This document shows positions 5,212-28,960 of a stretch of DNA of 32,000 nt, one piece after another. The DNA comes from an uncultured Erysipelotrichaceae bacterium (GTDB taxonomy: Bacteria; Bacillota_I; Bacilli_A; Erysipelotrichales; Erysipelotrichaceae), in NCBI GenBank assembly GCA_942492995.1, contig OW818653.1, positions 150,001 through 182,000 of the forward strand. Direction: 5' to 3'. A program made the position numbers and the translations under genes. The stretch's first letter is position 1. Every line of letters begins with the position of its first letter. Under the pieces are notes generated by a model, which had not been told where the DNA came from, did not search any database, and saw only the letters and a program-made list of their open reading frames with translations.

Positions 5212-6056
5212 TCTTAGAAAATGAAACGATTTATTTAAACGTTGATTTACAGGCTGCAGAGATGCATTCATTAATCGATAAAGTAAATGATAAAGAATGG
5301 ATATGGAATGCGAATCCAGAGTTCTGGTCACAACGGAATCCAATCTTATTTCCACTTGTTGGAAATACCTATGATAAGAAACTACATATTGATGGAAAGG
5401 AATACGCTATTGGTAATCATGGATTTACACGACATGCATTATTCACCTGTATTGAACAAACTCCAGAAAAGATTGTCTTACAGCTTAAATCTAATGAAAC
5501 GACATTAAGTCAGTATCCATATGAATTTACTTTAGAAGTTGAATATCGATTAAACCAAGCATCCATAGATATTATCTATCGTATAACCAATGATTCTAAT
5601 CGCGTAATGCCATTCAACTTTGGTTTACATCCAGCATTCTTACATTCGAATAATGGAAGTGATAAAGCAATACCAATCGAATTTCTACAAAAAGAAGATA
5701 ATCTACCTGAATCTATACTACGGGTAGATGGTAATCAATACTTAGATTTTACTGATCAATTCTTTGAAACAACACCAACCCTTGTATTAGATAATGTTAA
5801 ATCAAGTTATGTGAGACTACATGACTTTAATAATTATCTCGATGTAAGTGTGTTTGGATATCGTTGGTTAGCGTTCTGGAAGAAGCCAAAATCTAACTTC
5901 ATTTGTATCGAACCTTGGTATGGTCATGATGATTTTGAACCATTCCATGGTGAATTCAAAGATCGTGAAGGGACATTATTCTTAGATTCTAATAAACAAT
6001 TTACGACATCGTATCAAATAATCCCAAAGGGCAATAAAGGAGAGAAACATGTTTAA
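5208..6056 (+). CDS. Aldose 1-epimerase family protein (LacX-like)
   Basis: The 282-aa product has PILFP.VGN, HGF.R and FGLHPAF motifs typical of mutarotase-fold proteins. Its start overlaps the upstream stop as ATGA. Confidence 0.8.
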   Translation: MILENETIYLNVDLQAAEMHSLIDKVNDKEWIWNANPEFWSQRNPILFPLVGNTYDKKLHIDGKEYAIGNHGFTRHALFTCIEQTPEKIVLQLKSNETTLSQYPYEFTLEVEYRLNQASIDIIYRITNDSNRVMPFNFGLHPAFLHSNNGSDKAIPIEFLQKEDNLPESILRVDGNQYLDFTDQFFETTPTLVLDNVKSSYVRLHDFNNYLDVSVFGYRWLAFWKKPKSNFICIEPWYGHDDFEPFHGEFKDREGTLFLDSNKQFTTSYQIIPKGNKGEKHV

Positions 6057-6774
6057 AGTATTCGTGTTTGATGATTATGAAGGATTAAGTCAAAAAGCAT
6101 TTGAAGTTATGGAAGAGGTTGTTAAACAAGATAAAGTAACGCTTGGTTTAGCTACGGGATCAAGTCCTGTTGGTTTGTACAAACGCTTAGTCGCAGCACA
6201 TAAAGATGGTTTGTCATTCAAAAATGTACAAAGCTTTAACTTAGATGAATATGTTGGATTAAGTAAGAATCATGATCAAAGTTATTATCATTTCATGTTT
6301 GAACATCTATTTAAACATGTTGATTTCAATTTAGACAATGTACATTTACCAAAAGGTGAAGGATCACTTGAAGATGTGGCAGAAGAATATGAAGCAATGT
6401 TAAAACAAAATCCTCAAGATTTACAATTATTAGGAATCGGTTCAAATGGACATATTGGATTTAATGAACCAGGTACAAGCTTTGAATCTACAGTTCATGT
6501 TGTACGTTTAAAAGATGAAACACGTCAAGATAATGCCCGATTCTTTGGATCAATCGATGAAGTACCTCATTTCGCTATAACAATGGGTATTCAAGATATT
6601 TTACGTGCTAAGAAAATATTATTGGTTGCGTCTGGAAAAAATAAAGCGGTTGCGATTAAAGAAATGTTAGAAGGAAAGATTCGTGAAGAAGTTCCTTGTA
6701 CAATCTTACAAAGTCATCCAGATGTGATTGTTGTGTTAGATAAGGAAGCCGCTTCTTTAATTAAGCATGATTAA
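6049..6774 (+). CDS. nagB: Glucosamine-6-phosphate deaminase
   Basis: The 241-aa product has LGLATGSSP, FNLDEYVGL and LGIGSNGHIGFNEPG motifs. It overlaps the upstream gene by 8 nt. Confidence 0.92.
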   Translation: MFKVFVFDDYEGLSQKAFEVMEEVVKQDKVTLGLATGSSPVGLYKRLVAAHKDGLSFKNVQSFNLDEYVGLSKNHDQSYYHFMFEHLFKHVDFNLDNVHLPKGEGSLEDVAEEYEAMLKQNPQDLQLLGIGSNGHIGFNEPGTSFESTVHVVRLKDETRQDNARFFGSIDEVPHFAITMGIQDILRAKKILLVASGKNKAVAIKEMLEGKIREEVPCTILQSHPDVIVVLDKEAASLIKHD

Positions 6775-7648
6775 ATTAATCGTTTCAGATTTAGATGGTA
6801 CACTTTTAACTAAATTTAAATCGGTATCCAAAGAAAACCAACAGGCTCTTATCGAAGCTCAGAACCAAGGATGTATCCTTGCGTTAGCTACAGGTCGTGG
6901 GTATGATAGCACACATCAATTCATACCACTCTTGAAGATGGATCAATACAATGGCTATATGGTTATGAACAATGGCCAACGTTTAATCGATGTTAAATCC
7001 GGTAAAACGACAATTAATGGTTATATTACAATAGAAGATGCGAAACAAGTTTTAGCGTTTGCGCAGAAACATCATTTACAGTTTGTGATGGATGGTGATA
7101 CTGGTTTTGCGTTCTACTCCCCAAAGAATTTAAGAATCTATCGTGATATTTATCGTTTCTTAATTAAAATACTTCCTCATTTCAAACCGATTTTAGGTCG
7201 TATTCATATCTTTAGCTTATTTGGTTTCTTAAAAACGCAAGAAGTTAAAATTATAAATGATGCGAGTGATATCACAACAAATTACGATAAAATTGGATTA
7301 GCGCATACTAAATTAAGTTTAGATAAGAGTTACCAAGAATTAATGGAAGCGTTTGATGAACATTTTGAAGTTATGCGTGTTTCTGATAACTGGATTGATA
7401 TTTGTCCTAAGGGTTTGACAAAACTTGTAGGCATTAAACAAATCATGGAAATTCATGGTATTAATGAAGATGAAGTATTAACGATGGGTGATTCCGATAA
7501 TGATGTGACGATGATATCTGCGTTTCCACATGGCGTTGCGATGGGGAATGCGAATGAACGCATTAAATCTTTAGCGAAATTTACCACAAAGACAAATGCG
7601 GAAAATGGCGTAGCGTATGCGGTAGAGAAGTTCGTTTTAAATAAGTGA
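6767..7648 (+). CDS. Cof-type HAD-IIB phosphatase
   Basis: The 293-aa product has MIKLIVSDLDGTLL, ATGR and GDSDNDV..... GVAMGNA motifs. It overlaps nagB by 8 nt. Confidence 0.88.
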   Translation: MIKLIVSDLDGTLLTKFKSVSKENQQALIEAQNQGCILALATGRGYDSTHQFIPLLKMDQYNGYMVMNNGQRLIDVKSGKTTINGYITIEDAKQVLAFAQKHHLQFVMDGDTGFAFYSPKNLRIYRDIYRFLIKILPHFKPILGRIHIFSLFGFLKTQEVKIINDASDITTNYDKIGLAHTKLSLDKSYQELMEAFDEHFEVMRVSDNWIDICPKGLTKLVGIKQIMEIHGINEDEVLTMGDSDNDVTMISAFPHGVAMGNANERIKSLAKFTTKTNAENGVAYAVEKFVLNK

Positions 7649-7713
7649 GCATATTGAGCGTAAATGATTTAGAATATTGATATACTCAAAGGGATAAAAA
7701 ACGGAGGAACGTA

Positions 7714-8028
7714 ATGAAAACTGTAAATGCGGTAGAATTTGATTCAACAACTAAAAAGGGTGTAGTATTGGTAGATTTCTCAGCTGAATGGTGTGGTCCT
7801 TGTAAGATGATCGCTCCAGTTCTTGAACAATTATCCAAAGAATTAGAAGGCAAAGTTAAAATTATAACTGTCGATGTCGATGTCGAACAAGCTTTAGCTC
7901 AACGTTATAATGTAATGTCTATCCCTACACTATTATTGTTTAAGGATGGCACAGTCGTTGGTCAAGTCGTTGGATTCCAATCCAAGGCAATGTTAGAAAA
8001 ATTTATTCAAAGAGCATACGTAAACTAA
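7714..8028 (+). CDS. trxA: Thioredoxin
   Basis: The 104-aa product has the WCGPCK active site. A GGAGG RBS lies upstream. Confidence 0.95.
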   Translation: MKTVNAVEFDSTTKKGVVLVDFSAEWCGPCKMIAPVLEQLSKELEGKVKIITVDVDVEQALAQRYNVMSIPTLLLFKDGTVVGQVVGFQSKAMLEKFIQRAYVN

Positions 8029-8049
8029 GAAGCGAAAGCTTCTTTTTTT
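8027..8049 (+). terminator. Intrinsic terminator of trxA
   Basis: AAGAAGC (8027-8033), loop GAAA, GCTTCTT (8038-8044), then a T-tract to 8049. Confidence 0.75.
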
Positions 8050-8188
8050 ATAGAAGTTAAATATTTGACGTTAAATGAGATAAATTAATCTCTTTTTTAA
8101 TATATTGAATTTAGTGCAATATTTTTAAAATAGGTATATATTTTAAGTGATTAGAGAACTTGTTAAAAAATGGATTTATGTCTAGGGT

Positions 8189-8216
8189 TTGACTGGTTAA
8201 TTAAGTGTTTTATAAT
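8189..8216 (+). promoter_or_regulatory. SigmaA-type promoter candidate P1 (regulator and pot operon)
   Basis: TTGACT (8189-8194), a 16-nt spacer, then TATAAT (8211-8216). Confidence 0.45.
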
Positions 8217-8241
8217 TCATAAAAATAATTGATTATAAATA

Positions 8242-8269
8242 TTGCATTTGAGAAAAAATGTTTTATAAT
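8242..8269 (+). promoter_or_regulatory. SigmaA-type promoter candidate P2 (regulator and pot operon)
   Basis: TTGCAT (8242-8247), a 16-nt spacer, then TATAAT (8264-8269). Confidence 0.45.
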
Positions 8270-8278
8270 GTACTTTGT

Positions 8279-8317
8279 GTTTAGTATAAAACGCTAAATA
8301 GTTTAGTAAAACTAAAC
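8279..8317 (+). promoter_or_regulatory. Candidate operator pair in the 5' leader of the HTH-cupin regulator
   Basis: There is a perfect palindrome GTTTAGT-AAA-ACTAAAC at 8301-8317. An imperfect copy GTTTAG-N9-CTAAAT lies at 8279-8298. Both sit between P2 and the RBS. Confidence 0.4.
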
Positions 8318-8328
8318 AGAGGAAACTG

Positions 8329-8862
8329 ATGGAAATTGGACAAAGAATTAAACAATTACGGACGCAGAACAAACTAACACTCGAAGAGTTGGCAAGTCGT
8401 TGTGAGTTAAGTAAGGGATTTATTTCTCAAGTAGAAAGAGATCTTACTTCACCATCGATTGCGACACTAAGTGATATTGTCGAAGCGCTAGGGATTAATC
8501 TTGCACAGTTTTTCAAAGAAGAGAAAGATGAAAAACTCGTTTTTGCTCAAGAAGATTTCTTTGTGGATGAAAAAGAAGATTACACCATACATTGGATTGT
8601 GCCAAATGCACAGAAAAATGATATGGAACCAATTATGTTGGAGTTAAAGCCTGATCAACAATCAGCTGTTATAACACCTCATAATGGAGAAGAATTTGGT
8701 TATGTAATAAATGGGAAGATTAGTTTAGTTATCAATAACAAGAAACATGTTGTTAAGAAGGGACAGACATTCTATATAAAAGGAATGCATGACCATTACA
8801 TCCTTAACGATACCAAGTCTGACGCAAAAGTATTATGGGTATGTAACCCACCAATTTTCTAG
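8329..8862 (+). CDS. XRE-family HTH plus cupin transcriptional regulator (PuuR-like)
   Basis: The 177-aa product has an N-terminal HTH (IGQRIKQLRTQNKLTLEELASRCELSKGFISQVERD) and a C-terminal cupin barrel (GEEFGYVINGKISL...). Confidence 0.85.
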   Translation: MEIGQRIKQLRTQNKLTLEELASRCELSKGFISQVERDLTSPSIATLSDIVEALGINLAQFFKEEKDEKLVFAQEDFFVDEKEDYTIHWIVPNAQKNDMEPIMLELKPDQQSAVITPHNGEEFGYVINGKISLVINNKKHVVKKGQTFYIKGMHDHYILNDTKSDAKVLWVCNPPIF

Positions 8863-8871
8863 GAGGCACAA

Positions 8872-9915
8872 ATGAAAAAACTGATTGAATTTCAAAACAT
8901 TGTAAAAAGCTTTAATGACAGTTTAGTTTTAAAAGGAATTAACTTATCGATTCATGAAAATGAGTTTGTAACGCTACTTGGACCAAGTGGTTGTGGTAAA
9001 ACAACTTTACTTAGAATATTAGGTGGATTTATATCCCAAAATGAAGGACATGTTTATTTCGATGATATTGAAATTAGTAATGTTCCTCCATATAAACGTG
9101 AAATTAATACAGTATTCCAACGTTATGCATTATTCCCACATATGAATGTGTTTGATAATATTGCGTTTGGTTTACGTATCAAGAAACAAGATAAGAATAC
9201 AATCGAACAAAAAGTTCGTAAGATGTTAAAACTCGTTAACCTTGAAGGATATGAAGATCGTCCAGTAACCTTGTTATCGGGTGGTCAACAACAACGTGTT
9301 GCGATTGCACGTGCATTAGTTAATGAACCAATGGTTCTATTACTCGATGAACCTTTAGGGGCACTTGATTTAAAATTACGTAAAGAAATGCAGATTGAGT
9401 TAAAGAAAATCCAACAAGAAGTTGGCATTACCTTTATTTATGTTACACATGACCAAGAAGAAGCGTTAACCATGTCAGATACGATTGTGGTAATGAATGC
9501 TGGAGAAATCCAACAAATTGGTACACCAACAGATATTTACAACGAACCTGAGAATCGCTTTGTGGCTGATTTTATTGGGGAATCAAATATTATTGATGGT
9601 GTGATGTTAGAAGATTATAAAGTCAAATTCGATGATCAAGTATTTGAATGCATCGATTATGGATTTGAAGATAACTTAGATGTGGATATTGTTTTACGCC
9701 CTGAGGATATTGATATTGTTCCAATTGATATGGGACGTATTAAAGGTTTTATTAAATCTACGATATTCAAGGGAGTTCACTTTGAAGTTGTGGTTGAAAC
9801 ACCGTACCGTGAATGGATTATTCATACTACTGATAAAGTAGAGGTGGATAAGGAGGTAGGATTACACTTCTTCCCAGAAGACATTCACATTATGTATAAG
9901 ATGGGAACCTATTAA
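8872..9915 (+). CDS. potA: Spermidine/putrescine ABC transporter ATP-binding protein
   Basis: The 347-aa product has Walker [10 protein letters not shown], the [15 protein letters not shown] signature, Walker B LLLDEP and a PotA-type C-terminal regulatory domain. Confidence 0.92.
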
Positions 9916-9916
9916 T

Positions 9917-10768
9917 ATGAAAGGTTATGCAAGTCTAGTAAAACCTTATATATTTTGGATGTCCTTGTTTATCGTAGTTCCGATGTTACTGATTGTTCTA
10001 TATGCATTTACTGAACATGGAAATGCGTTGATGGCATTCCGTTTCACCTTAGATAACTTCCTTAGATTCTTTGATCCAGTCTTTATCAAAGTATTATTCA
10101 AATCACTAGAAGTTGCGCTTATTACAACATTCCTTTGTATCCTAATTGGTTATCCAATTGCGTATATCATTTCTAATACAAGTGAACGTACTCAAACATT
10201 ACTAATCTTATTAATTACACTTCCTATGTGGATTAATATGTTAGTTCGTACGTACGCATGGATTAGTATCTTATCGGATGGTGGTATCTTAAATTCAATC
10301 TTTGAGTTTATGGGACTTCAACCAATAAAGATGATGTATACCGATTTTGCGGTAATGTTAGGGATGGTATATAACTTCTTACCGTTTATGATTATTTCAA
10401 TTTACACTGTATTAGCAAAACTCGATCGTGCATTAATTCATGCAAGTCATGATTTAGGGGCAAATCCAGTTCAAACATTCTTACGTATTGTATTACCATT
10501 ATCAATGCCTGGCGTTATTTCAGGGATAACATTGGTGTTCTTACCAGCAGTTAGTACTTTCGTTATTCCTAAGTTCTTGGGTGGCGGTCAGTATATGTTA
10601 ATTGGTAACTTAATTGAGAACCAATTTATTACGGTTGGTGAATGGAACTTTGGTAGTGCTATTTCGTTGATTATGGCGATGATTATTATGGGATCAATGA
10701 TTCTTACACGTAAGATTGATCGTGATGCGTCGGATACCGCAAGTGTTGAAGGAGGTAAATTATGGTAG
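9917..10768 (+). CDS. potB: Spermidine/putrescine ABC transporter permease
   Basis: The 283-aa polytopic product has an EAA-like loop (ALIHASHDLGANPVQTF.RIVLP). Confidence 0.9.
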   Translation: MKGYASLVKPYIFWMSLFIVVPMLLIVLYAFTEHGNALMAFRFTLDNFLRFFDPVFIKVLFKSLEVALITTFLCILIGYPIAYIISNTSERTQTLLILLITLPMWINMLVRTYAWISILSDGGILNSIFEFMGLQPIKMMYTDFAVMLGMVYNFLPFMIISIYTVLAKLDRALIHASHDLGANPVQTFLRIVLPLSMPGVISGITLVFLPAVSTFVIPKFLGGGQYMLIGNLIENQFITVGEWNFGSAISLIMAMIIMGSMILTRKIDRDASDTASVEGGKLW

Positions 10769-19179: not shown

Positions 19180-19202
19180 TAAAAAAGTACGGTTTACGTA
19201 CT
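19180..19202 (-). terminator. Intrinsic terminator of the TetR gene
   Basis: AGTACG (19186-19191) pairs with CGTACT (19197-19202). The A-run at 19180-19186 reads as a T-tract on the minus strand. Confidence 0.6.
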
Positions 19203-19813
19203 TACTGATTAGAATATTGTTGGATATAGATAGGTATACTTAGCGCAAAGAAATTTACGAATGTATCTTTAAATACTTCATCGTTGATATCCAATACACC
19301 TAATGAATATTGTAAGGCAACGCCATCAAGTGCTGCGACAAGTATTGCGGCTATACGCTTTTGACAAGCTTGGTTTTCTACCCCAAACGCATAGAAATAG
19401 AGCTTTGCGACTTTATCAATAATTTCATTATAATCTAAGCGATACTTTTCTTTTATACGTCCACCTTTAGTAATTGCGTATGCAGTTAACAGGATTAGTA
19501 ATCGTTGTTCGATTTCTTTTGACATACGATCTCGAACATTCGTACTAATTTCTTCAAACATTTCTTGATTAGTCTTAAGTTTACTGTCCTTATCTTTTTC
19601 AGATAATTTATGTACGAAATAAGCGGATTCTTTGACTGCGTCATAATACAAATCATCTTTGTTTTTATAATGATAATAAATAGCGCCAGTCGTAAGCCCA
19701 GCATTTGCCGCAATCTCACGCATACTCGCTTTTTCGAAACCTTGGGTTGCGAACACATGAAGTGCCGCATCAAGGAGTTGTTTCTTTTTGTCGATAATTA
19801 GTTCTTCTATCAT
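19202..19813 (-). CDS. TetR/AcrR-family transcriptional regulator
   Basis: The 203-aa product has an N-terminal TetR HTH (FEKASMREIAANAGLTTGAIYYHYKNKDDLY). It is divergent from the hypB operon. Confidence 0.9.
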   Translation of the reverse strand: MIEELIIDKKKQLLDAALHVFATQGFEKASMREIAANAGLTTGAIYYHYKNKDDLYYDAVKESAYFVHKLSEKDKDSKLKTNQEMFEEISTNVRDRMSKEIEQRLLILLTAYAITKGGRIKEKYRLDYNEIIDKVAKLYFYAFGVENQACQKRIAAILVAALDGVALQYSLGVLDINDEVFKDTFVNFFALSIPIYIQQYSNQ

Positions 19814-19885: not shown

Positions 19886-19914
19886 TTGTAACATAACAAA
19901 TGTTATGTTAATAT
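19886..19914 (+). promoter_or_regulatory. hypB-operon promoter with embedded perfect palindromic operator O2
   Basis: TTGTAA (19886-19891), a 17-nt spacer, then TAATAT (19909-19914). The palindrome TAACATAACA-AA-TGTTATGTTA (19889-19910) fills the spacer and touches both hexamers. Confidence 0.55.
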
Positions 19915-19952
19915 TATCACAATTAGAGTGATAAGACTCAGAAAGAGTGATT

Positions 19953-20621
19953 ATGACGCAATTTAGAATTCTAGAGATTAAAGAAAGTGTATTTGAGAAT
20001 AATAATAAACAAGCAGATTTATTACGTGAATCATTAAAGAAAGATAAACGATTTTTATTGAATTTAATGTCCTCACCAGGTTCTGGTAAAACGACTACTT
20101 TAACGCAAACAATTAATCGATTAAAAGATGAATTTAGCATTGGCGTCATGGAAGCGGATATCGATTCAGATGTAGATGCACATACAATAGCGAAGACTGG
20201 TGTGAAAGTAATTCAACTTCATACCGGTGGGATGTGTCATTTAGATGCGGATATGACCAAACAAGGTCTAGACGGATTGGGTATTGATGAATGTGATTTG
20301 GTTATCTTAGAAAATGTTGGAAATTTGGTATGCCCTGCAGAGTTTGATACAGGTGCGAGTAAGAATGCGATGATTCTAAGTGTTCCAGAAGGTGATGATA
20401 AGCCGTTAAAGTATCCACTAATGTTCTCAATTTGTCAGGTTCTATTAATTAATAAAATCGACGTATTAAATGTGTTTGATTTTGATTTAGAACTTTGTAT
20501 ATCAAGAGTTAAAAAGATTAATCCTAATATAAAAATAATCCCTATATCAGCTAGAACGGGTGTTGGAATGGATGAATTTGCGGAATGGTTACGACACGAA
20601 GTGAGAACCTGGAAGGAATAA
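19953..20621 (+). CDS. hypB: Nickel-insertion GTPase HypB
   Basis: The product has P-loop SPGSGKTT, the G-domain metal-binding motif GGMCHLDA, ENVGNLVCPAEFD and NKID. I prefer the ATG at 19953 (RBS GAAAGAG 5 nt upstream) to the GTG at 19947 used in the track. There is no N-terminal His-rich stretch. Confidence 0.88.
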   Translation: MTQFRILEIKESVFENNNKQADLLRESLKKDKRFLLNLMSSPGSGKTTTLTQTINRLKDEFSIGVMEADIDSDVDAHTIAKTGVKVIQLHTGGMCHLDADMTKQGLDGLGIDECDLVILENVGNLVCPAEFDTGASKNAMILSVPEGDDKPLKYPLMFSICQVLLINKIDVLNVFDFDLELCISRVKKINPNIKIIPISARTGVGMDEFAEWLRHEVRTWKE

Positions 20622-20622
20622 T

Positions 20623-23316
20623 ATGGATAATAAACAAGTAAAGTTAAAAGTATTAGAGTTTGCGAATAAAGTAAGTAATAAGAAGATGGGTTCTAAAGGC
20701 GCAATTACCGCAAGTGATCCACGTTATTACATTATGGAACCTGTTGTAAGTGATGAAATGGCTGAAGTCGCATTAGTAATGGAATTTAGAAAAGCACTTA
20801 GTGCAGAAGAATTAGCGAAACGTTGTGGAAAATCTGTTGAGTTAACAGAGAAGCTTTGTTGGGAACTTGCGATGGCAGGGGTATGTTTCGTTAATAAAAA
20901 AGAAGGTGTAGATAAATATTGGTATGACACATGGGTTCCAGGCATTATGGAAATGATGTGTAATAACTTAGATAATGTTCGTAAATACCCTCAGATAGCA
21001 CGTGCATTTGAAGAGTATGGACGTGTTGTTGGACCGATGAGTGTTGGTAAATTTCCAGTTGGGGTTGGCGTTATGCGTGTTATCCCAATTGAAACTGCAA
21101 TTCAAGGTGAAACGCGTCGTGCATCGTATGAAGAAGTTTCAAAATACTTAAATGATGCGCATATTTTCTCAGTGTCAGATTGTTCATGTCGTACATCACG
21201 TGAGGCAATTGGCGAAGGCTGTGGGCATTTAAAAGAAGACATGTGTATTCAAATGGATCATGCGGCGGAATACTATATTCGTACAGGTCGTGGTAAAGAA
21301 ATTACACGTGAAGAAGCACTCGAAATCATTAAACGCGCAGAAGAAAATGGTTTAATGCATCAAATACCGAATCTTGATGGTTCAGGTAAAACCCATGCGA
21401 TTTGTAACTGTTGCGGATGTTCATGTTATGCGATGCGTATTGCGTCAATGTTCAAGAACTCAGACATGGTACGTTCTAATTACGTTGCGCACGTAGATCC
21501 TGAGAAGTGTGTTGCGTGTGGTGAATGTGTTGAGAATTGTCCAACCAATGCGGCTAAATTAGGTCAAAAACTTTACACAATCAATCCAATAAAACAAGCT
21601 AAGGTTGAAACACCGCGTGATATGAAGTGGGGACCTGAGAAGTACAATCCTGATTATCGTACAAATCGTAAGGATGTTGTGGATAGTGGTACAAGTCCAT
21701 GTAAGACGGAATGTCCTGCGCATATTTCAGTTCAAGGGTATATTCGTTTAGCATCACTTGGTAAATATAAAGAAGCGTTAGAACTTATTAAGCATGAAAA
21801 TCCATTCCCAGCGGTATGCGGTCGTATTTGCCCACGTAAATGTGAATCCGCATGTACACGTTGTGAGATTGATAAAGCTGTCGCAATTGATGAAATTAAG
21901 AAATACATTGCGGACCAAGATTTAAGTTTAGAAAATCGTTATGTCCCTAAACAAAAACATAATTATGGTAAGAAGATTGCGATTATCGGGGCAGGTCCTG
22001 CTGGATTATCATGTGCATTCTATCTTGCGATTGATGGATATAAAGTAACGGTATTTGAGAAACAAGAAAAGCTTGGGGGAATGTTAACTCTAGGTATTCC
22101 AAATTATCGATTAGAGAAGGATGTTGTGAATGCGGAAATTGATATTCTAAGAGAACTTGGGGTTGAATTTAAAACAGGTATTGAAGTTGGTAAAGATGTT
22201 AGCTTAGATGAATTACGTAACCAAGAGTATAAGGCATTCTATGTCGCTATTGGAGCACAAAAAGGTCGTAAGTTGAACATCGAAGGGGAAGAACACCCTG
22301 ATGTATTATCTGGTGTTGATTTCTTAAGAAATACGAATTTAGGTAAATCAAATAAAATCGAAGGTAATGTCGTTGTCATTGGTGGCGGTAATGTCGCAAT
22401 CGATGTGGCGCGTACAGCAGTTCGTCTTGGTGCAAGTAAAGTAGATATGGTTTGTTTAGAGAGTCGTGAAACGATGCCAGCTCTTGAAGAAGAAATTCAT
22501 GAGGCATTGGATGAGAAAGTAAATCTCAATAATTCTTGGGGTCCTAAACGCATCGTAATTGAAAATAATAAAGTAGTTGGGGTTGAGTTTAAGAAATGTA
22601 TCTCAGTATTGGATGAAAATAAACGTTTTAATCCTCAATATGATGAAACAAATACCATCATAATCCCAGCTTCAACTGTACTAATCTCAGTTGGACAAGC
22701 GATTGATTGGGGTAATTTATTAGATGGGACTGAAGTTGAATTTAATCCAAATCGTACATTGAGTGCGGATGGATTTACGTACCAAACGAATCATAAAGAT
22801 ATCTTCACGGGTGGTGATTGTTATACTGGACCACGCTTTGCGATTGATGCGATTGCGGCGGGTAAACAAGCTGCGATTTCAATTCATCGATTCGTACAAC
22901 CTGGACAAAGTTTAGTGTTAGGTCGTGATCGTCGTGAATTTGTGGCGATTGATAAAGAGAATTTAGATTTACAAGGCTATGATCGTATACCTCGCGAAAG
23001 TGTTAAACATAACTATAAAACATCGGGTTCTGAAGCATTTAAAGATGGACGTTTAACCTTTAGCGAAGAACAAATGAAGAAAGAAACGGAAAGATGTTTA
23101 GGGTGTGGGGCAACCGTTGTCGATGAGTACATGTGCGTTGGATGTGGACAATGTACAACGAAGTGTAAGTTTGATGCGATTAAACTTGTGCGTACCTATG
23201 ATTCAAAAGGTGCAGGGTATGAAGAGTTAAAACCAATTGTACTTAAACAAATCGTTAAGCGTGAAATTAAGATTGTCGCTAAAAATATAAAGAACGCTTT
23301 TTCTAAAGAAGATTAA
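20623..23316 (+). CDS. Multidomain Fe-S flavoprotein: Cys-rich N-terminal module, ferredoxin motif, GltD-like NAD(P)H/FAD oxidoreductase core and C-terminal ferredoxin motif
   Basis: The 897-aa product has these elements in order. N-terminal cysteines: C187-x-C189...C200...C208 and C261-x-CC-x-C-x-C268. First ferredoxin motif: C296xxCxxCxxxCP. GltD-type cysteines: 360-414 (SPC..EC, AVCGRICP..CE.AC). Dinucleotide folds: IAIIGAGPAG (455-460) and VIGGGNVA (587-592). C-terminal ferredoxin motif: C825xxC...C838xxCxxCxxxC848. The gene starts 1 nt after the hypB stop. Confidence 0.85.
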   Translation: MDNKQVKLKVLEFANKVSNKKMGSKGAITASDPRYYIMEPVVSDEMAEVALVMEFRKALSAEELAKRCGKSVELTEKLCWELAMAGVCFVNKKEGVDKYWYDTWVPGIMEMMCNNLDNVRKYPQIARAFEEYGRVVGPMSVGKFPVGVGVMRVIPIETAIQGETRRASYEEVSKYLNDAHIFSVSDCSCRTSREAIGEGCGHLKEDMCIQMDHAAEYYIRTGRGKEITREEALEIIKRAEENGLMHQIPNLDGSGKTHAICNCCGCSCYAMRIASMFKNSDMVRSNYVAHVDPEKCVACGECVENCPTNAAKLGQKLYTINPIKQAKVETPRDMKWGPEKYNPDYRTNRKDVVDSGTSPCKTECPAHISVQGYIRLASLGKYKEALELIKHENPFPAVCGRICPRKCESACTRCEIDKAVAIDEIKKYIADQDLSLENRYVPKQKHNYGKKIAIIGAGPAGLSCAFYLAIDGYKVTVFEKQEKLGGMLTLGIPNYRLEKDVVNAEIDILRELGVEFKTGIEVGKDVSLDELRNQEYKAFYVAIGAQKGRKLNIEGEEHPDVLSGVDFLRNTNLGKSNKIEGNVVVIGGGNVAIDVARTAVRLGASKVDMVCLESRETMPALEEEIHEALDEKVNLNNSWGPKRIVIENNKVVGVEFKKCISVLDENKRFNPQYDETNTIIIPASTVLISVGQAIDWGNLLDGTEVEFNPNRTLSADGFTYQTNHKDIFTGGDCYTGPRFAIDAIAAGKQAAISIHRFVQPGQSLVLGRDRREFVAIDKENLDLQGYDRIPRESVKHNYKTSGSEAFKDGRLTFSEEQMKKETERCLGCGATVVDEYMCVGCGQCTTKCKFDAIKLVRTYDSKGAGYEELKPIVLKQIVKREIKIVAKNIKNAFSKED

Positions 23317-23318
23317 TT

Positions 23319-23660
23319 ATGCATGAATTAGGCGTAGTAATAGAGGTTGTTAAAGCGTTGGATCGAGTAGTCAAAGAAAATAATCTCAAAGAAGTTGAAA
23401 CGATTGTATTACAGATTGGTGAAATATCGTCGATGATGCCAAAGTACATCGAGGATTGTTTCGAAGTAGCGGTAGATGGAACACAGTTCGAGAAGACAAA
23501 ATTGAGAATTGAAATATTGACTGCGACTGCTTTATGTCGACCATGTCAGAAAGTATTTAAATTAGTAGAAAATGATGGATTGTGTGAATGTTGTAAAGGG
23601 AATGATTGGGAACTCTTAAGTGGGAAAGAGTTCCTAATTAAAGAAATAGTAGCGTGTTAA
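23319..23660 (+). CDS. hypA: Nickel metallochaperone HypA
   Basis: The 113-aa product has the N-terminal Ni-binding MHE motif and Zn-site cysteines C73xxC76...C89xCC92. It starts 2 nt after the upstream stop. Confidence 0.88.
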   Translation: MHELGVVIEVVKALDRVVKENNLKEVETIVLQIGEISSMMPKYIEDCFEVAVDGTQFEKTKLRIEILTATALCRPCQKVFKLVENDGLCECCKGNDWELLSGKEFLIKEIVAC

Positions 23661-23669
23661 GGAGAAGTT

Positions 23670-24368
23670 ATGAATGAACTAACCTATTTATTATCTACTG
23701 CACTCTTTATCGGGACAGTTCATACATTAATTGGTGTGGACCATTACTTACCGTTTGTCGTGTTATCTAAGGCTAATAATTGGTCTATAAAGAAAACATG
23801 TGGAATTGTGTTTGTATGTGGTATTGGGCATGTTTTAAGTTCAGTGATTCTTGGATTTATCGGTTTAGCAATAAGTTCAAGTTTAATGACACTTGTTGGT
23901 ATTGAAGATATACGAGGAACACTCGCAACGTATTTTATCATTGCGTTTGGATTGGGTTATACCGTTTATGCTTTACATAACTTATATAAGAATCGAACGC
24001 ATAAACATATGATTGATGGACATGAACTGGTCCATGATCATCATGATACGAAGAGTATTGAAGAACATGTTCATGATAAGAAGAAAACAAATGTCGTATG
24101 GGGTTTATTCATTTTATTTGTTTTAGGTCCATGTGAACCTTTGATTCCTTTATTAATGTATCCAGCTTCAACACTTAATGTGTTTGCGCTAATTAGTGTT
24201 ACCTTGGTGTTTTCAATTAGCACAATAAGTGTCATGTTGGGACTTACGGTATTAGGCATAAAAGGTTTGGATTTCATCAAGATTAAGCATTTAGAAAAGT
24301 ATGGAGAGACACTAGCAGGTTTGGCAATTACTGTTTGCGGTGTTCTCATGATTACCTTAGGGATATAG
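23670..24368 (+). CDS. Putative nickel/cobalt transporter (RcnA/NicO-like topology with a HupE/UreJ-like HxxxGxDH motif)
   Basis: The 232-aa product has about 6 TM helices. Helix 1 carries VHTLIGVDH. A cytoplasmic-type loop (about residues 103-136) contains 9 His. GPCEP follows in the next helix, comparable to the IPCP in RcnA. Confidence 0.6.
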   Translation: MNELTYLLSTALFIGTVHTLIGVDHYLPFVVLSKANNWSIKKTCGIVFVCGIGHVLSSVILGFIGLAISSSLMTLVGIEDIRGTLATYFIIAFGLGYTVYALHNLYKNRTHKHMIDGHELVHDHHDTKSIEEHVHDKKKTNVVWGLFILFVLGPCEPLIPLLMYPASTLNVFALISVTLVFSISTISVMLGLTVLGIKGLDFIKIKHLEKYGETLAGLAITVCGVLMITLGI

Positions 24369-24391: not shown

Positions 24392-25378
24392 ATGTTTGTA
24401 TTTAACACATTAGAAGGTGGGAGCTTTCTAGCAGCGTTTAGTATGTTACTGGTTGTATTAGTTAGTTTGTTTGTATTCAATGAAGTAACACGTAGATTTA
24501 AATGGGCAGGTTTTGTGAGTTTTGTGATTCTACCTGTTGTACTAACTGTAATCTGGTTTACGGTTATGAAAGAAACAACCTATACCGATTGGTTCCACCT
24601 TGCAAAAGTATATTCTGCGACGGCAGGATCAATTGGTTTCTGGTTAATTCGTCATTATGAAAAGAAGGATAAATCTGGGAATGTTATATGGAGACTTGCG
24701 ACAAATAAAGTCGCATTATGTTTCCCACCATTAATTTTAGCAATTAATATCCTTGAAGCTGTAGCGCGTGATATAGAAGTAGGATCTGCATTCTGGATGA
24801 TTAATTCAGGTGCGATTGAAGGCGAAATCATGGGTGTATTGGGTGGTCCATGGAATTACATGAATGCACTTGCTGGAATCTTGAATATTATTACGATTAC
24901 AGGTTGGTTTGGCATCGTAATTCGTAGACAAACACAAAAAGATAAGAGTCGTGATATGTTATGGCCAGATATGTTGTGGTTCTGGATAATTGCGTATGAT
25001 GTTTGGAACTTTGTGTACACGTATAACTGTATTCCATCACATTCTTGGTATGCAGGATTAGCGTTATTAGTTGCGCCAACATTATGTGCATTTACTTTAG
25101 GCAAAGGCGCATGGCTTCAACATCGTGCCGCAACTCTTGCGATTTGGTGTATGTTTGCTCAAACGTTCCCATTATTTCAGGATACGGGTAAATACATGGT
25201 TGCGTCGAGTTATAATCCTACCATCTATACCATTCTTGGGGCTTTATCCTTAGCGGTTAATTTAGCAGTATTTGTTTATATGATACTTAAATACACTAAG
25301 ACTAAACGTAATCCATATAAGAGTGAATTGTATACAGATTTAAGTGAATACAAAGCCATTAAACTCCTTGCAGAGTAA
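24392..25378 (+). CDS. Polytopic membrane protein of unknown function, last gene of the hyp-containing operon
   Basis: The 328-aa product has about 8-9 hydrophobic helices and is rich in Trp and aromatic residues. A strong RBS (TAGGAGGAA) lies upstream. I cannot place it in a named family from memory. Confidence 0.7.
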   Translation: MFVFNTLEGGSFLAAFSMLLVVLVSLFVFNEVTRRFKWAGFVSFVILPVVLTVIWFTVMKETTYTDWFHLAKVYSATAGSIGFWLIRHYEKKDKSGNVIWRLATNKVALCFPPLILAINILEAVARDIEVGSAFWMINSGAIEGEIMGVLGGPWNYMNALAGILNIITITGWFGIVIRRQTQKDKSRDMLWPDMLWFWIIAYDVWNFVYTYNCIPSHSWYAGLALLVAPTLCAFTLGKGAWLQHRAATLAIWCMFAQTFPLFQDTGKYMVASSYNPTIYTILGALSLAVNLAVFVYMILKYTKTKRNPYKSELYTDLSEYKAIKLLAE

Positions 25379-25381
25379 AAG

Positions 25382-25402
25382 AAAACGGACAATGTCCGTT
25401 TT
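25382..25402. terminator. Bidirectional terminator shared by the hyp operon and pepF
   Basis: AAAACGGAC (25382-25390), loop AAT, GTCCGTTTT (25394-25402). The A and T tracts serve both strands. Confidence 0.75.
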
Positions 25403-27502: not shown

Positions 27503-28960
27503 ATGAAAGATTTAAAGATGGATCAATCGCGCGCTCCAATAGCAGAAGCTATGGAGACACATGGATACAAGCGAACTGTCGCATTCGATGTACCTGGCCA
27601 TAAACAAGGAAAAGGGAATCCGATGTTGCGGGAATTTTTAGGTGATAAATGTTTACGTTATGATGTTAACTCACGCAAAGATTTAGATAATTTATGTCAT
27701 CCAAGTGGGGTAATTTTAGAAGCTGAAGAATTAGCTGCTGATGCGTTTCATGCGGGGCATGCGTTCTTTATGTTAAATGGTACGACTTCTGCTGTACAAA
27801 CAATGGTATTAGCTGTAGCACGTGCGAATGAAAAGATTATCTTGCCTCGTAATGTACATCGTTCAGTTATCTATGCATTAATCTTAACTGGAGCGATTCC
27901 GGTTTATGTTAATCCAGATGTTCATCCGAAATATGGAATACCTCTAGGTATGAAATTATCGAATGTTGAAAAGGCTATCTTAGAAAATCCAGATGCGAAA
28001 GCGATCTTTGTGAATAATCCTACGTATTATGGAATATGTAGTAATCTTAAGGGAATTGTAGAATTAGCGCATAAACATGGTATGCAAGTATGTGCAGATG
28101 AGGCGCATGGTACACATTTTTACTTTAAATCAGGTTTACCAATTAGCGCTATGGATGCTGGTGCTGATATGGCGGCAGTTAGTATGCACAAAACAGGCGG
28201 AAGTTTAACGCAGAGTTCTATCTTACTAATCAAAGATAAAGCTCGTATGGCTGAAATTCGTCAAGTAATTAATTTAACCCAAACAACGAGTGGCTCTTAT
28301 TTATTGTTGTCGTCACTTGATATATCAAGAAAATATTTAGCCTTACAAGGTGAAAGTGTTTTTGAACAAGTTTTAAAACTTACAAAATATGCGCGTGAAG
28401 AAATATCGGATATAGAAGGGTATTATGCATTCTCTGAAGATATTGTTAATCATGATAGTGTCTATGCATTTGATCCGACCAAACTAACCATTCATACGCG
28501 TGGAATTGGTTTAGCTGGTACAGAGTTATATGATATCTTACGTGATGAGTATGATATTCAAGTTGAATTAGGGGATTTAGGGAATATCTTAGCGATTATT
28601 GGGATTGGGGATTCAAAAGCTCAAATCGAACGATTAATTTCTGCTTTACAGGATATTAAAGATACCTATGGTACTGAAGATAAATCGATGATTCCATTTG
28701 ACTACATTAATCCTGTGGTTAAAGTATCACCTCAAACTGCGTATTACTCAAAAATGAAACCTGTTCGTTTCACTGAATCACTAAATCGTATCAGTGGAGA
28801 ATCAATTATGGTCTATCCTCCAGGTATTCCTATTATTGCGCCAGGTGAAGAAATTACGCAGGTTGCGATTGATTATATTATGTATGCGAAGGAAGTTGGA
28901 AGTTTCTTGACAGGTATTGAAGATGTGAACATTGAATATATCAATGTCTTGGAGGATTAA
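27503..28960 (+). CDS. speA: Arginine decarboxylase (Orn/Lys/Arg decarboxylase family, Bacillus SpeA type)
   Basis: The 485-aa product has F..PGHK.G, the PLP-lysine motif SMHKTGGSLTQSS and VYPPGIPI..PGE. It appears colinear with what I recall of B. subtilis SpeA. Substrate is inferred from the linked agmatinase and spermidine synthase genes. Confidence 0.82.
   Translation: MKDLKMDQSRAPIAEAMETHGYKRTVAFDVPGHKQGKGNPMLREFLGDKCLRYDVNSRKDLDNLCHPSGVILEAEELAADAFHAGHAFFMLNGTTSAVQTMVLAVARANEKIILPRNVHRSVIYALILTGAIPVYVNPDVHPKYGIPLGMKLSNVEKAILENPDAKAIFVNNPTYYGICSNLKGIVELAHKHGMQVCADEAHGTHFYFKSGLPISAMDAGADMAAVSMHKTGGSLTQSSILLIKDKARMAEIRQVINLTQTTSGSYLLLSSLDISRKYLALQGESVFEQVLKLTKYAREEISDIEGYYAFSEDIVNHDSVYAFDPTKLTIHTRGIGLAGTELYDILRDEYDIQVELGDLGNILAIIGIGDSKAQIERLISALQDIKDTYGTEDKSMIPFDYINPVVKVSPQTAYYSKMKPVRFTESLNRISGESIMVYPPGIPIIAPGEEITQVAIDYIMYAKEVGSFLTGIEDVNIEYINVLED

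Follow-up and report, generated by a model that had tools for sequence, protein, structure and literature searches.

An IsrA-family flavoenzyme with a cysteine-rich N-terminal module and co-encoded HypA and HypB in an Erysipelotrichaceae genome

Introduction

The closest described relative of the system examined here is IsrA, an isoprene-induced putative isoprene reductase of 901 amino acids (aa) from Acetobacterium wieringae ISORED-2, linked to the reduction of isoprene and of butadiene, both of which are conjugated dienes (Kronen et al. 2023, PMC10134865). According to the same study, IsrA carries four canonical clusters together with flavin adenine dinucleotide (FAD) and NAD(P)H sites; its first ~270 residues are unannotatable and hold the "Cys6 cluster V", six topologically close cysteines that include both CxC motifs, which was likened to the P-cluster and double-cubane sites, and also to centres of the acetyl-CoA synthase/carbon monoxide dehydrogenase (ACS/CODH) type. 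Homologs of ~900 aa, termed clade 9, occur in many anaerobes; the neighbours of 988 homologs include HypA (0.73), HypB (0.56), DUF5692 (0.40) and TetR (0.21), and nickel insertion at cluster V was proposed (PMC10134865). A paralogous 350-aa ferredoxin aligns to the IsrA N-terminus, and no HypA/HypB association was found for the ferredoxin group of that study; in A. wieringae, isoprene strongly induces IsrA and its hyp genes (PMC10134865). Two 2026 preprints add Pelotomaculum transcript data in which hypA and hypB are induced, with no biochemistry. The present work concerns an 897-aa protein of this kind and the operon around it, encoded in a stretch of 32,000 nucleotides (nt), hereafter the window, from an uncultured Erysipelotrichaceae bacterium (GenBank assembly GCA_942492995.1, contig OW818653.1, positions 150,001 to 182,000, forward strand).

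The reading that we favour, with moderate confidence, is that the 897-aa protein is an IsrA-family flavoenzyme whose N-terminal module holds a nickel-containing site, loaded by HypA and HypB, that hydrogenates C=C bonds. The fusion architecture, the HypA/HypB linkage and the nickel-site hypothesis are already published, and biochemically unproven (PMC10134865). New here are the counts of hypB and hypA at 80 ortholog loci, the missing markers of other nickel enzymes in the host genome, the stand-alone N-terminal modules linked to chaperones, the position of a GltD-like module inside a ferredoxin domain, and an isomerase-like gene at eight ortholog loci.

Results

Family placement and linkage to nickel chaperones

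By its sequence, the 897-aa protein is placed in the IsrA (clade 9) family of multi-cluster flavoenzymes. The family is marked by ~47-49% identity or more to IsrA (VUZ27132.1) together with placement in clade 9 of the published tree; over its full length, the protein is 48% identical to the Cys6-type clade-9 representative P0153, which is not IsrA itself. P0153 (26-residue insertion, Cys6 pattern) was also tried as IsrA and rejected, its context of TetR, the fused gene itself and HypA differing from the isr operon. The succession of parts is that of clade 9, namely an unannotatable N-terminus of ~270-290 aa, Fer4, Fer4_20, the FAD/NAD(P) region and a C-terminal Fer4. The genes hypA and hypB, sought within a few genes, both directly adjoin the 897-aa gene.

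The operon consists of hypB, the 897-aa gene, hypA, a permease gene and a DUF5692 gene, spaced by 1-23 nt, with one promoter-like site and one terminator. HypB retains the P-loop GSGKT, CH at 97-98, C129 and NKID. The His-rich membrane protein, of the DsbD_2 type, contains 13 His, ten of them within residues 103-135, and is a probable nickel permease. The first-pass annotation of this DNA had named the N-terminal module as the natural candidate for a substrate or hetero-metal site, and the presence of hypB, hypA and the His-rich permease in one operon strongly backs the idea of a hetero-metal site.

Chaperone linkage extends well beyond this genome. Ortholog loci were counted among the best 80 from 528 species genomes encoding a relative; they belong to Bacillota, Chloroflexota, Spirochaetota and one deltaproteobacterium, at 68-99% protein identity. 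The ortholog gene is adjoined by hypB in 72/80 loci and by hypA in 76/80, and a DUF5692 gene is present at 53/80. The divergent upstream regulators are of the GntR/FCD (FadR) type in 32/80 loci and of the TetR type in 21/80. The His-rich permease is restricted to six Erysipelotrichales-type loci, the closest of the 80, and the lineages without it must obtain nickel in another way. Beyond hypB, hypA, DUF5692 and the regulators, no recurrent neighbour that would name a substrate occurs in more than 8/80 loci, and no partner catalytic subunit is conserved across the 80.

The host genome is represented by one contig of 2.0 Mb and is 98.5% complete. Five other nickel-enzyme markers were searched in it, and the [NiFe]-hydrogenase large subunit, HypD, CODH/HCP, urease and LarA were all not found. 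The genome holds one hypB (the window copy), two hypA and two IsrA-like genes. The second IsrA-like protein (893 aa, 63% identical, ~798.7-801.3 kb) has its own hypA and DUF5692 genes; its operon (C1:797370-802182, minus strand) comprises, besides the gene for this 893-aa protein, one for a 275-aa membrane protein and paralogs of hypA (42%) and of DUF5692 (41%). There is no hypB in this paralog operon and, therefore, the single hypB of the window presumably serves both. A stand-alone N-terminal-module ferredoxin was not found in the host genome. In this genome, no plausible client for HypA, HypB and the putative nickel permease was found other than the two IsrA-like proteins.

The cysteine-rich N-terminal module

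The N-terminal module (N-module, residues 1-290) contains nine cysteines in two groups, C187, C189, C200 and C208 (nt 21181-21246) and C261, C263, C264, C266 and C268 (nt 21403-21426), every one of them at the position first read. Their conservation was followed in an alignment of 93 fused sequences, among them 80 orthologs, the paralog from the host genome and 11 distant representatives. All nine are invariant in the 80 orthologs, which span four phyla, and in the paralog. Six of them, the two CxC pairs C187/C189 and C261/C263 together with C208 and C268, are invariant across all 93, as are the Fe-S ligands so marked in Table 1. The remaining triad, C200, C264 and C266, is invariant in the ortholog group and kept in the stand-alone family, but lost together in some relatives: among the five representatives without C264/C266, C200 is also replaced in four (P0153, P0169, P0187 and P0191) and retained in P0168. 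The expected conservation of all nine cysteines is consequently universal for six and partial for the other three. Since the Cys6 core is invariant and the triad is lost in some members, the predicted metal site is described as a Cys6 core plus a facultative C200/C264/C266 triad. Cys6-type members also keep HypA, which argues that the triad, Cys-Gly-Cys included, is not needed for the chaperone link. The middle residue of the Cys-X-Cys motif (C264-G-C266 here) is variable among relatives. Because the cysteines are invariant in the 80 orthologs and the paralog, and eight or nine of them are retained in stand-alone homologs at only 24-35% identity, they are not a chance feature.

At the level of known domains, residues 1-289 match zero Pfam families even at E<=1 and zero NCBIfam models, and a profile search of the PDB with a 47-sequence alignment matched the ferredoxin part alone. 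The AlphaFold2 model of the N-module, built from a 126-row alignment, has a predicted local distance difference test (pLDDT) score of 85 and a predicted template modelling (pTM) score of 0.82; when the whole module was compared with the PDB by Foldseek, the winged-helix subdomain alone was recognised, with a best E of 7e-3. The Cys-rich alpha/beta subdomain, modelled separately with AlphaFold2 (pLDDT 79), gave no credible Foldseek match (best E 0.41, template modelling score, TM, <=0.24). An ACS-like domain, or any known cluster domain, was rejected for the N-module at the fold level, the Cys-rich subdomain being unmatched. The fold of the N-module, the winged helix excepted, has no solved relative. 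The first-pass idea was to fail if the N-module matched a well-characterised domain or if the extra cysteines were not conserved; it is refuted neither by the Pfam, NCBIfam, PDB profile and Foldseek searches, which give the winged helix or the ferredoxin part at most, nor by the conservation of the cysteines.

Domain architecture of the 897-aa protein

The open reading frame (ORF) encodes 897 residues, without an internal stop. Pfam matches are Fer4 at 290-310, Fer4_20 at 357-433 (3e-23) and Pyr_redox_2 at 451-747 (1e-31), with the dinucleotide motifs GAGPAG at 456 and GGGNVA at 587; these agree with the GltD-like module with two dinucleotide folds that had been proposed for residues ~355-760. 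Both ferredoxin motifs noted at that stage are likewise recovered, the CxxCxxCxxxCP motif at C296-C306 and a second one comprising C825, C828, C838, C841, C844 and C848. The top NCBIfam model, PRK12771, covers residues 341-867 with 473.3 bits, under its cut-off of 516, and the protein as a whole is not assigned to it, though the domain-level Pfam matches pass. In the PDB, the best matches to the GltD-like module are 9bov_A (1e-99), 8oh5_C (4e-96) and 9n5u_A (NfnA, 7e-92).

Deletion of residues 317-830 leaves a sequence that is colinear with the stand-alone protein P0393 across both ferredoxin motifs and gapless at the joint. The splice, its joint picked from 120 trial splices, raises the score against P0393 from 132 to 153 bits. 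Given this colinearity, the GltD-like module has been inserted into the ferredoxin domain of an N-module protein, whose two halves it separates, and is not fused end to end. All parts of the unusual domain fusion described at first are present, but the architecture was already in print (PMC10134865) and its GltD-like part is inserted rather than joined end to end.

Stand-alone N-module ferredoxins

A phmmer search of 1.84 billion representative proteins gave 1,823 relatives of residues 1-290, some of them fused (750-945 aa) and many stand-alone (~355 aa). The existence of the stand-alone homologs had been correctly stated in the first-pass annotation: they combine an N-module with an ordinary 2x[4Fe-4S] ferredoxin behind it and are named "4Fe-4S binding protein" or "ferredoxin" only. 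They are colinear with residues 30-316 and 831-870 of the 897-aa protein, with conserved N-module cysteines, but have no flavin module and are mostly without nearby hyp genes. Their neighbours are mixed, including SdhAB-like proteins, molybdopterin oxidoreductase and flavodoxin-like proteins.

HypA/HypB flank some stand-alone N-module ferredoxins, at L081, L083/84 and 7/80 metagenome loci. The gene order is hypB-hypA-X in Dehalococcoidia and X-hypA-SdhA-like-SdhB-like in L081, a Hydrogenedentota genome, where X is the stand-alone N-module ferredoxin. The L081 genes (6001-9930) encode this ferredoxin, HypA, a fumarate-reductase/SdhA-like flavoprotein and an SdhB-like Fe-S protein, and the locus looks like the N-module as a catalytic unit wired to another electron-input system. 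A general HypA/HypB link for the stand-alone homologs fails, as the chaperones are found at ~9% of loci and in particular clades only. The N-module plus ferredoxin is the sole part common to all chaperone-linked architectures and, therefore, likely the part that HypA/HypB serve. Tandem copies of stand-alone N-module ferredoxin genes were observed on some metagenome contigs, with four in L096 and two in L082; those of L082 adjoin a molybdopterin oxidoreductase and a flavodoxin-like gene.

Substrate lead

For the ortholog group, the leading candidate substrate, put forward tentatively, is a fatty acid with a conjugated diene, for example conjugated linoleic acid (CLA). At 8/80 loci, in Vallitalea, Alkaliphilus, Sporanaerobacter and other taxa, the gene directly upstream on the same strand encodes a 420-aa flavoprotein. 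The top PDB match of its product, over the full length, is 2b9w/2ba9 (6e-63), which we take to be the linoleate isomerase of Propionibacterium acnes reported by Liavonchanka in 2006. The occurrence of this isomerase-like neighbour at eight loci suggests conjugated fatty acids as the substrate. CLA is a conjugated diene, as are isoprene and butadiene. The FadR-type GntR or TetR regulators divergent upstream were also counted for a lipid substrate. Furthermore, the operon is present in Paraclostridium and in C. sporogenes, where locus L023 has the order TetR, hypB, ortholog, hypA, DUF5692, and C. sporogenes, C. bifermentans and C. sordellii convert linoleate to CLA and then to vaccenic acid (review, PMC12254105). 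The clusters of A. woodii and A. fimetarium contain an oleate hydratase gene (PMC10134865). In the literature searched, no gene was assigned to the clostridial reductase step of linoleate biohydrogenation, and no link of HypA/HypB to linoleate hydrogenation was found. A CLA reductase was reportedly purified from Butyrivibrio fibrisolvens by Hughes in 1982, and a gene is said to have been reported by Fukuda in 2007.

At the eight loci (L040, L046, L055, L062, L071, L072, L074 and L075), a 355-aa helix-turn-helix (HTH) gene is followed by the 420-aa 2b9w-like gene upstream of hypB, the pair standing ~1.1-3.4 kb upstream of the ortholog.

Operon features in the window

The features of the locus are collected in Table 1. 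A promoter-like site at 19888-19917 overlaps the palindrome of the tetR/hypB intergenic region; this palindrome is probably the operator of TetR and lies across the operon promoter. The TetR-family regulator has weak NCBIfam matches to efflux and fatty-acid regulators. The hypB ORF as listed opens with GTG at 19947; an ATG two codons on (19953) has a purine-rich stretch just upstream and is the likely true start. Elsewhere in the window, the ORF at 27503-28960 has decarboxylase-type NCBIfam matches.

Table 1. Coordinates of the operon, its regulatory elements and the parts of the 897-aa protein (window positions).
Feature	Position	Strand	Details
Divergent TetR-family regulator	19202..19813	-	PF00440 TetR_N 3e-16
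Perfect 10+10 palindrome TAACATAACA-aa-TGTTATGTTA	19889..19910	.	tetR/hypB intergenic region
hypB, nickel-inserting GTPase	19947..20621	+	TIGR00073 252.8 bits vs cut-off 121.2
IsrA-family ("clade 9") Fe-S flavoenzyme, by sequence	20623..23316	+	897 aa; start 1 nt past hypB stop
N-module, residues 1-290	20623..21492	+	helical start, winged helix ~40-105, Cys-rich alpha/beta domain ~150-276
2x[4Fe-4S] ferredoxin domain, first half: C296, C299, C302, C306-P	21490..21552	+	PF00037 at 290-310; invariant
GltD/NfnB-like module: Fer4_20 (357-433, six invariant Cys) + FAD, NAD(P)H Rossmann folds (451-747)	21691..22863	+	
C825/C828 + second ferredoxin half-motif C838, C841, C844, C848	23095..23166	+	all invariant
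hypA, nickel metallochaperone	23319..23660	+	PF01155 98 bits; MHE N-terminus, two CxxC; 2 nt after 897-aa gene
His-rich polytopic membrane protein	23670..24368	+	PF13386 DsbD_2 5e-7
DUF5692 polytopic membrane protein, final gene of the operon	24392..25378	+	PF18948 6e-114
Bidirectional terminator hairpin ending the operon	25382..25402	.	

Discussion

Proposed mechanism and competing explanations

In the favoured reading, NAD(P)H would reduce the FAD of the GltD/NfnB-like module, from which electrons would pass to the two [4Fe-4S] clusters of the Fer4_20 domain, then to the two [4Fe-4S] clusters of the split ferredoxin domain (C296-C306 and C838-C848), and would end at the metal site of the Cys-rich N-module, formed by the Cys6 core and C200/C264/C266. 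The co-transcribed HypB and HypA would load this terminal site, for which the His-rich permease would take up the nickel. Most likely, the site is catalytic and contains nickel (Ni or Ni-Fe-S), and the most likely reaction adds hydrogen across a C=C bond of a hydrophobic compound.

Several observations weigh against this assignment. The stand-alone homologs share the N-module cysteines, yet ~90% of their loci are without nearby hypA/hypB and, therefore, the cysteines alone are no marker of a nickel site. The Cys-Gly-Cys sequence recalls the distal-Ni motif of ACS, but its middle residue varies, and C264/C266 are absent in HypA-keeping Cys6-type members. Concerning the substrate, Acetobacterium with homologs of the window protein's type do not reduce isoprene (PMC10134865), and the substrate of IsrA is therefore not transferable to the window protein. 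The 420-aa isomerase-like gene, ~390 bp from hypB, occurs in just 10% of the loci, and P. acnes-type linoleate isomerase and oleate hydratase were both not found in the host genome. Metal analysis or an enzyme assay of any family member was not found in the literature searched.

The first of these points is also an argument for a site with Fe-S chemistry only, in which the N-module would bind one or two unusual clusters (a [4Fe-4S] cluster with extra ligands, or a double-cubane-like one) and no nickel, with HypA/HypB acting in zinc/nickel buffering or in the maturation of another client. Six to nine cysteines suffice for such chemistry, and the resemblance to P-cluster and double-cubane sites was remarked by Kronen et al. 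(PMC10134865). We nevertheless regard this explanation as rather improbable, as the adjacency of hypB and hypA at 72/80 and 76/80 loci over four phyla is hard to account for without a client, and the five other nickel-enzyme markers are absent from the host genome. Furthermore, HypB scores above its equivalog cut-off and has the CH...C nickel site, HypA keeps MHE, and the His-rich permease lies within the operon. The same metallochaperones, being dedicated, argue for a special metal site and hence against a non-catalytic N-module, that is, a winged-helix docking or redox-sensing domain on an Nfn/Sud-like NAD(P)H:ferredoxin (or partner-protein) oxidoreductase. The winged helix is indeed the sole recognised fold of the module, and the remainder of the protein closely resembles electron-transfer modules of the NfnB/StnA type; however, the winged helix holds none of the invariant cysteines, which belong to a distinct alpha/beta domain modelled at high confidence, and a partner catalytic subunit is not conserved among the 80 loci. 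A non-catalytic module is thus considered very unlikely.

Equally poor prospects are given to a true reductase of isoprene or another small volatile diene, as is proposed for IsrA. Family and architecture are common to both proteins, and the induction by isoprene of IsrA and the hyp genes in A. wieringae, together with that of hypA and hypB in Pelotomaculum, is in keeping with such a role. Against it stand the failure of Acetobacterium strains with homologs of the window type to reduce isoprene, already mentioned, a site of Cys9 rather than Cys6 type, an identity of ~48% that refers to the Cys6-type P0153 and not to IsrA itself, the absence of the isr layout with two hypA genes and a stand-alone ferredoxin, and the lipid-related neighbours in the family loci. 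A wider proposal is possible though doubtful. In it, the N-module, with its fold unmatched among solved structures, would be a portable catalytic domain whose Ni or Ni-Fe-S centre is matured through HypA/HypB with no part played by HypCDEF, and would represent a novel nickel-enzyme class. It would hydrogenate unactivated or conjugated C=C bonds with electrons from varied input modules, such as the inserted GltD-like one or SdhAB-like partners, and the ortholog group together with DUF5692 would run the clostridial-type conversion of linoleate to CLA and vaccenic acid.

Significance and comparison with known systems

If the N-module binds nickel, the family, whose genes occur in at least 528 anaerobic species, gut and rumen-type clostridia among them, would represent a further nickel-enzyme class and a third kind of HypA/HypB client. 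The family would moreover provide a catalyst for the chemically hard, NAD(P)H-driven hydrogenation of non-activated alkenes, and the fatty-acid lead, if true, would tie the family to the biohydrogenation of dietary linoleic acid. The host genome is an unusually clean test case, being small and complete and having the two IsrA-like proteins as the only plausible clients found.

Compared with IsrA, the 897-aa protein has a similar length of ~900 aa, an unrecognised N-terminus with two CxC motifs, four canonical [4Fe-4S] sites and FAD and NAD(P)H sites; the two share hypA/hypB neighbours, frequent TetR and DUF5692, and genomes without [NiFe]-hydrogenase. In contrast, Cys6 is described for IsrA and Cys9 (Cys6 core plus triad) is found here, and the five-gene layout isrA-hypA-hypB-ferredoxin-hypA is replaced in the window by hypB-X-hypA-permease-DUF5692, where X is the 897-aa gene. 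The modules of the NfnB/GltD/StnA type (8oh5_C, 9bov_A, 9n5u_A, 4ylf_B, 5jca_L) align with residues 355-835, with E down to 1e-99, and have the same arrangement of Fer4_20 and a double Rossmann fold, but they carry no Cys-rich N-module and have other catalytic partners, whereas in the 897-aa protein the module sits inside the ferredoxin domain.

The distal-Ni site of acetyl-CoA synthase is formed by a Cys-Gly-Cys motif, and C264-G-C266 is like it; the ACS A-cluster/CODH and the predicted site also have in common a Cys-ligated metal site at the end of an Fe-S wire. Unlike the present system, these centres depend on AcsF/CooC-type chaperones rather than on HypA/HypB; no sequence or fold similarity was detected, by Foldseek or sequence search, and the triad is dispensable in Cys6-type members, where C264 and C266 are missing, which does not support an A-cluster-like site. 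Finally, the [NiFe]-hydrogenase and Helicobacter urease, as clients of HypA/HypB, employ the same two chaperones, whose nickel motifs are intact here; in contrast to those systems, the hydrogenase large subunit, HypD and urease are absent from the host genome, and the presumed client is a protein of unrelated fold.

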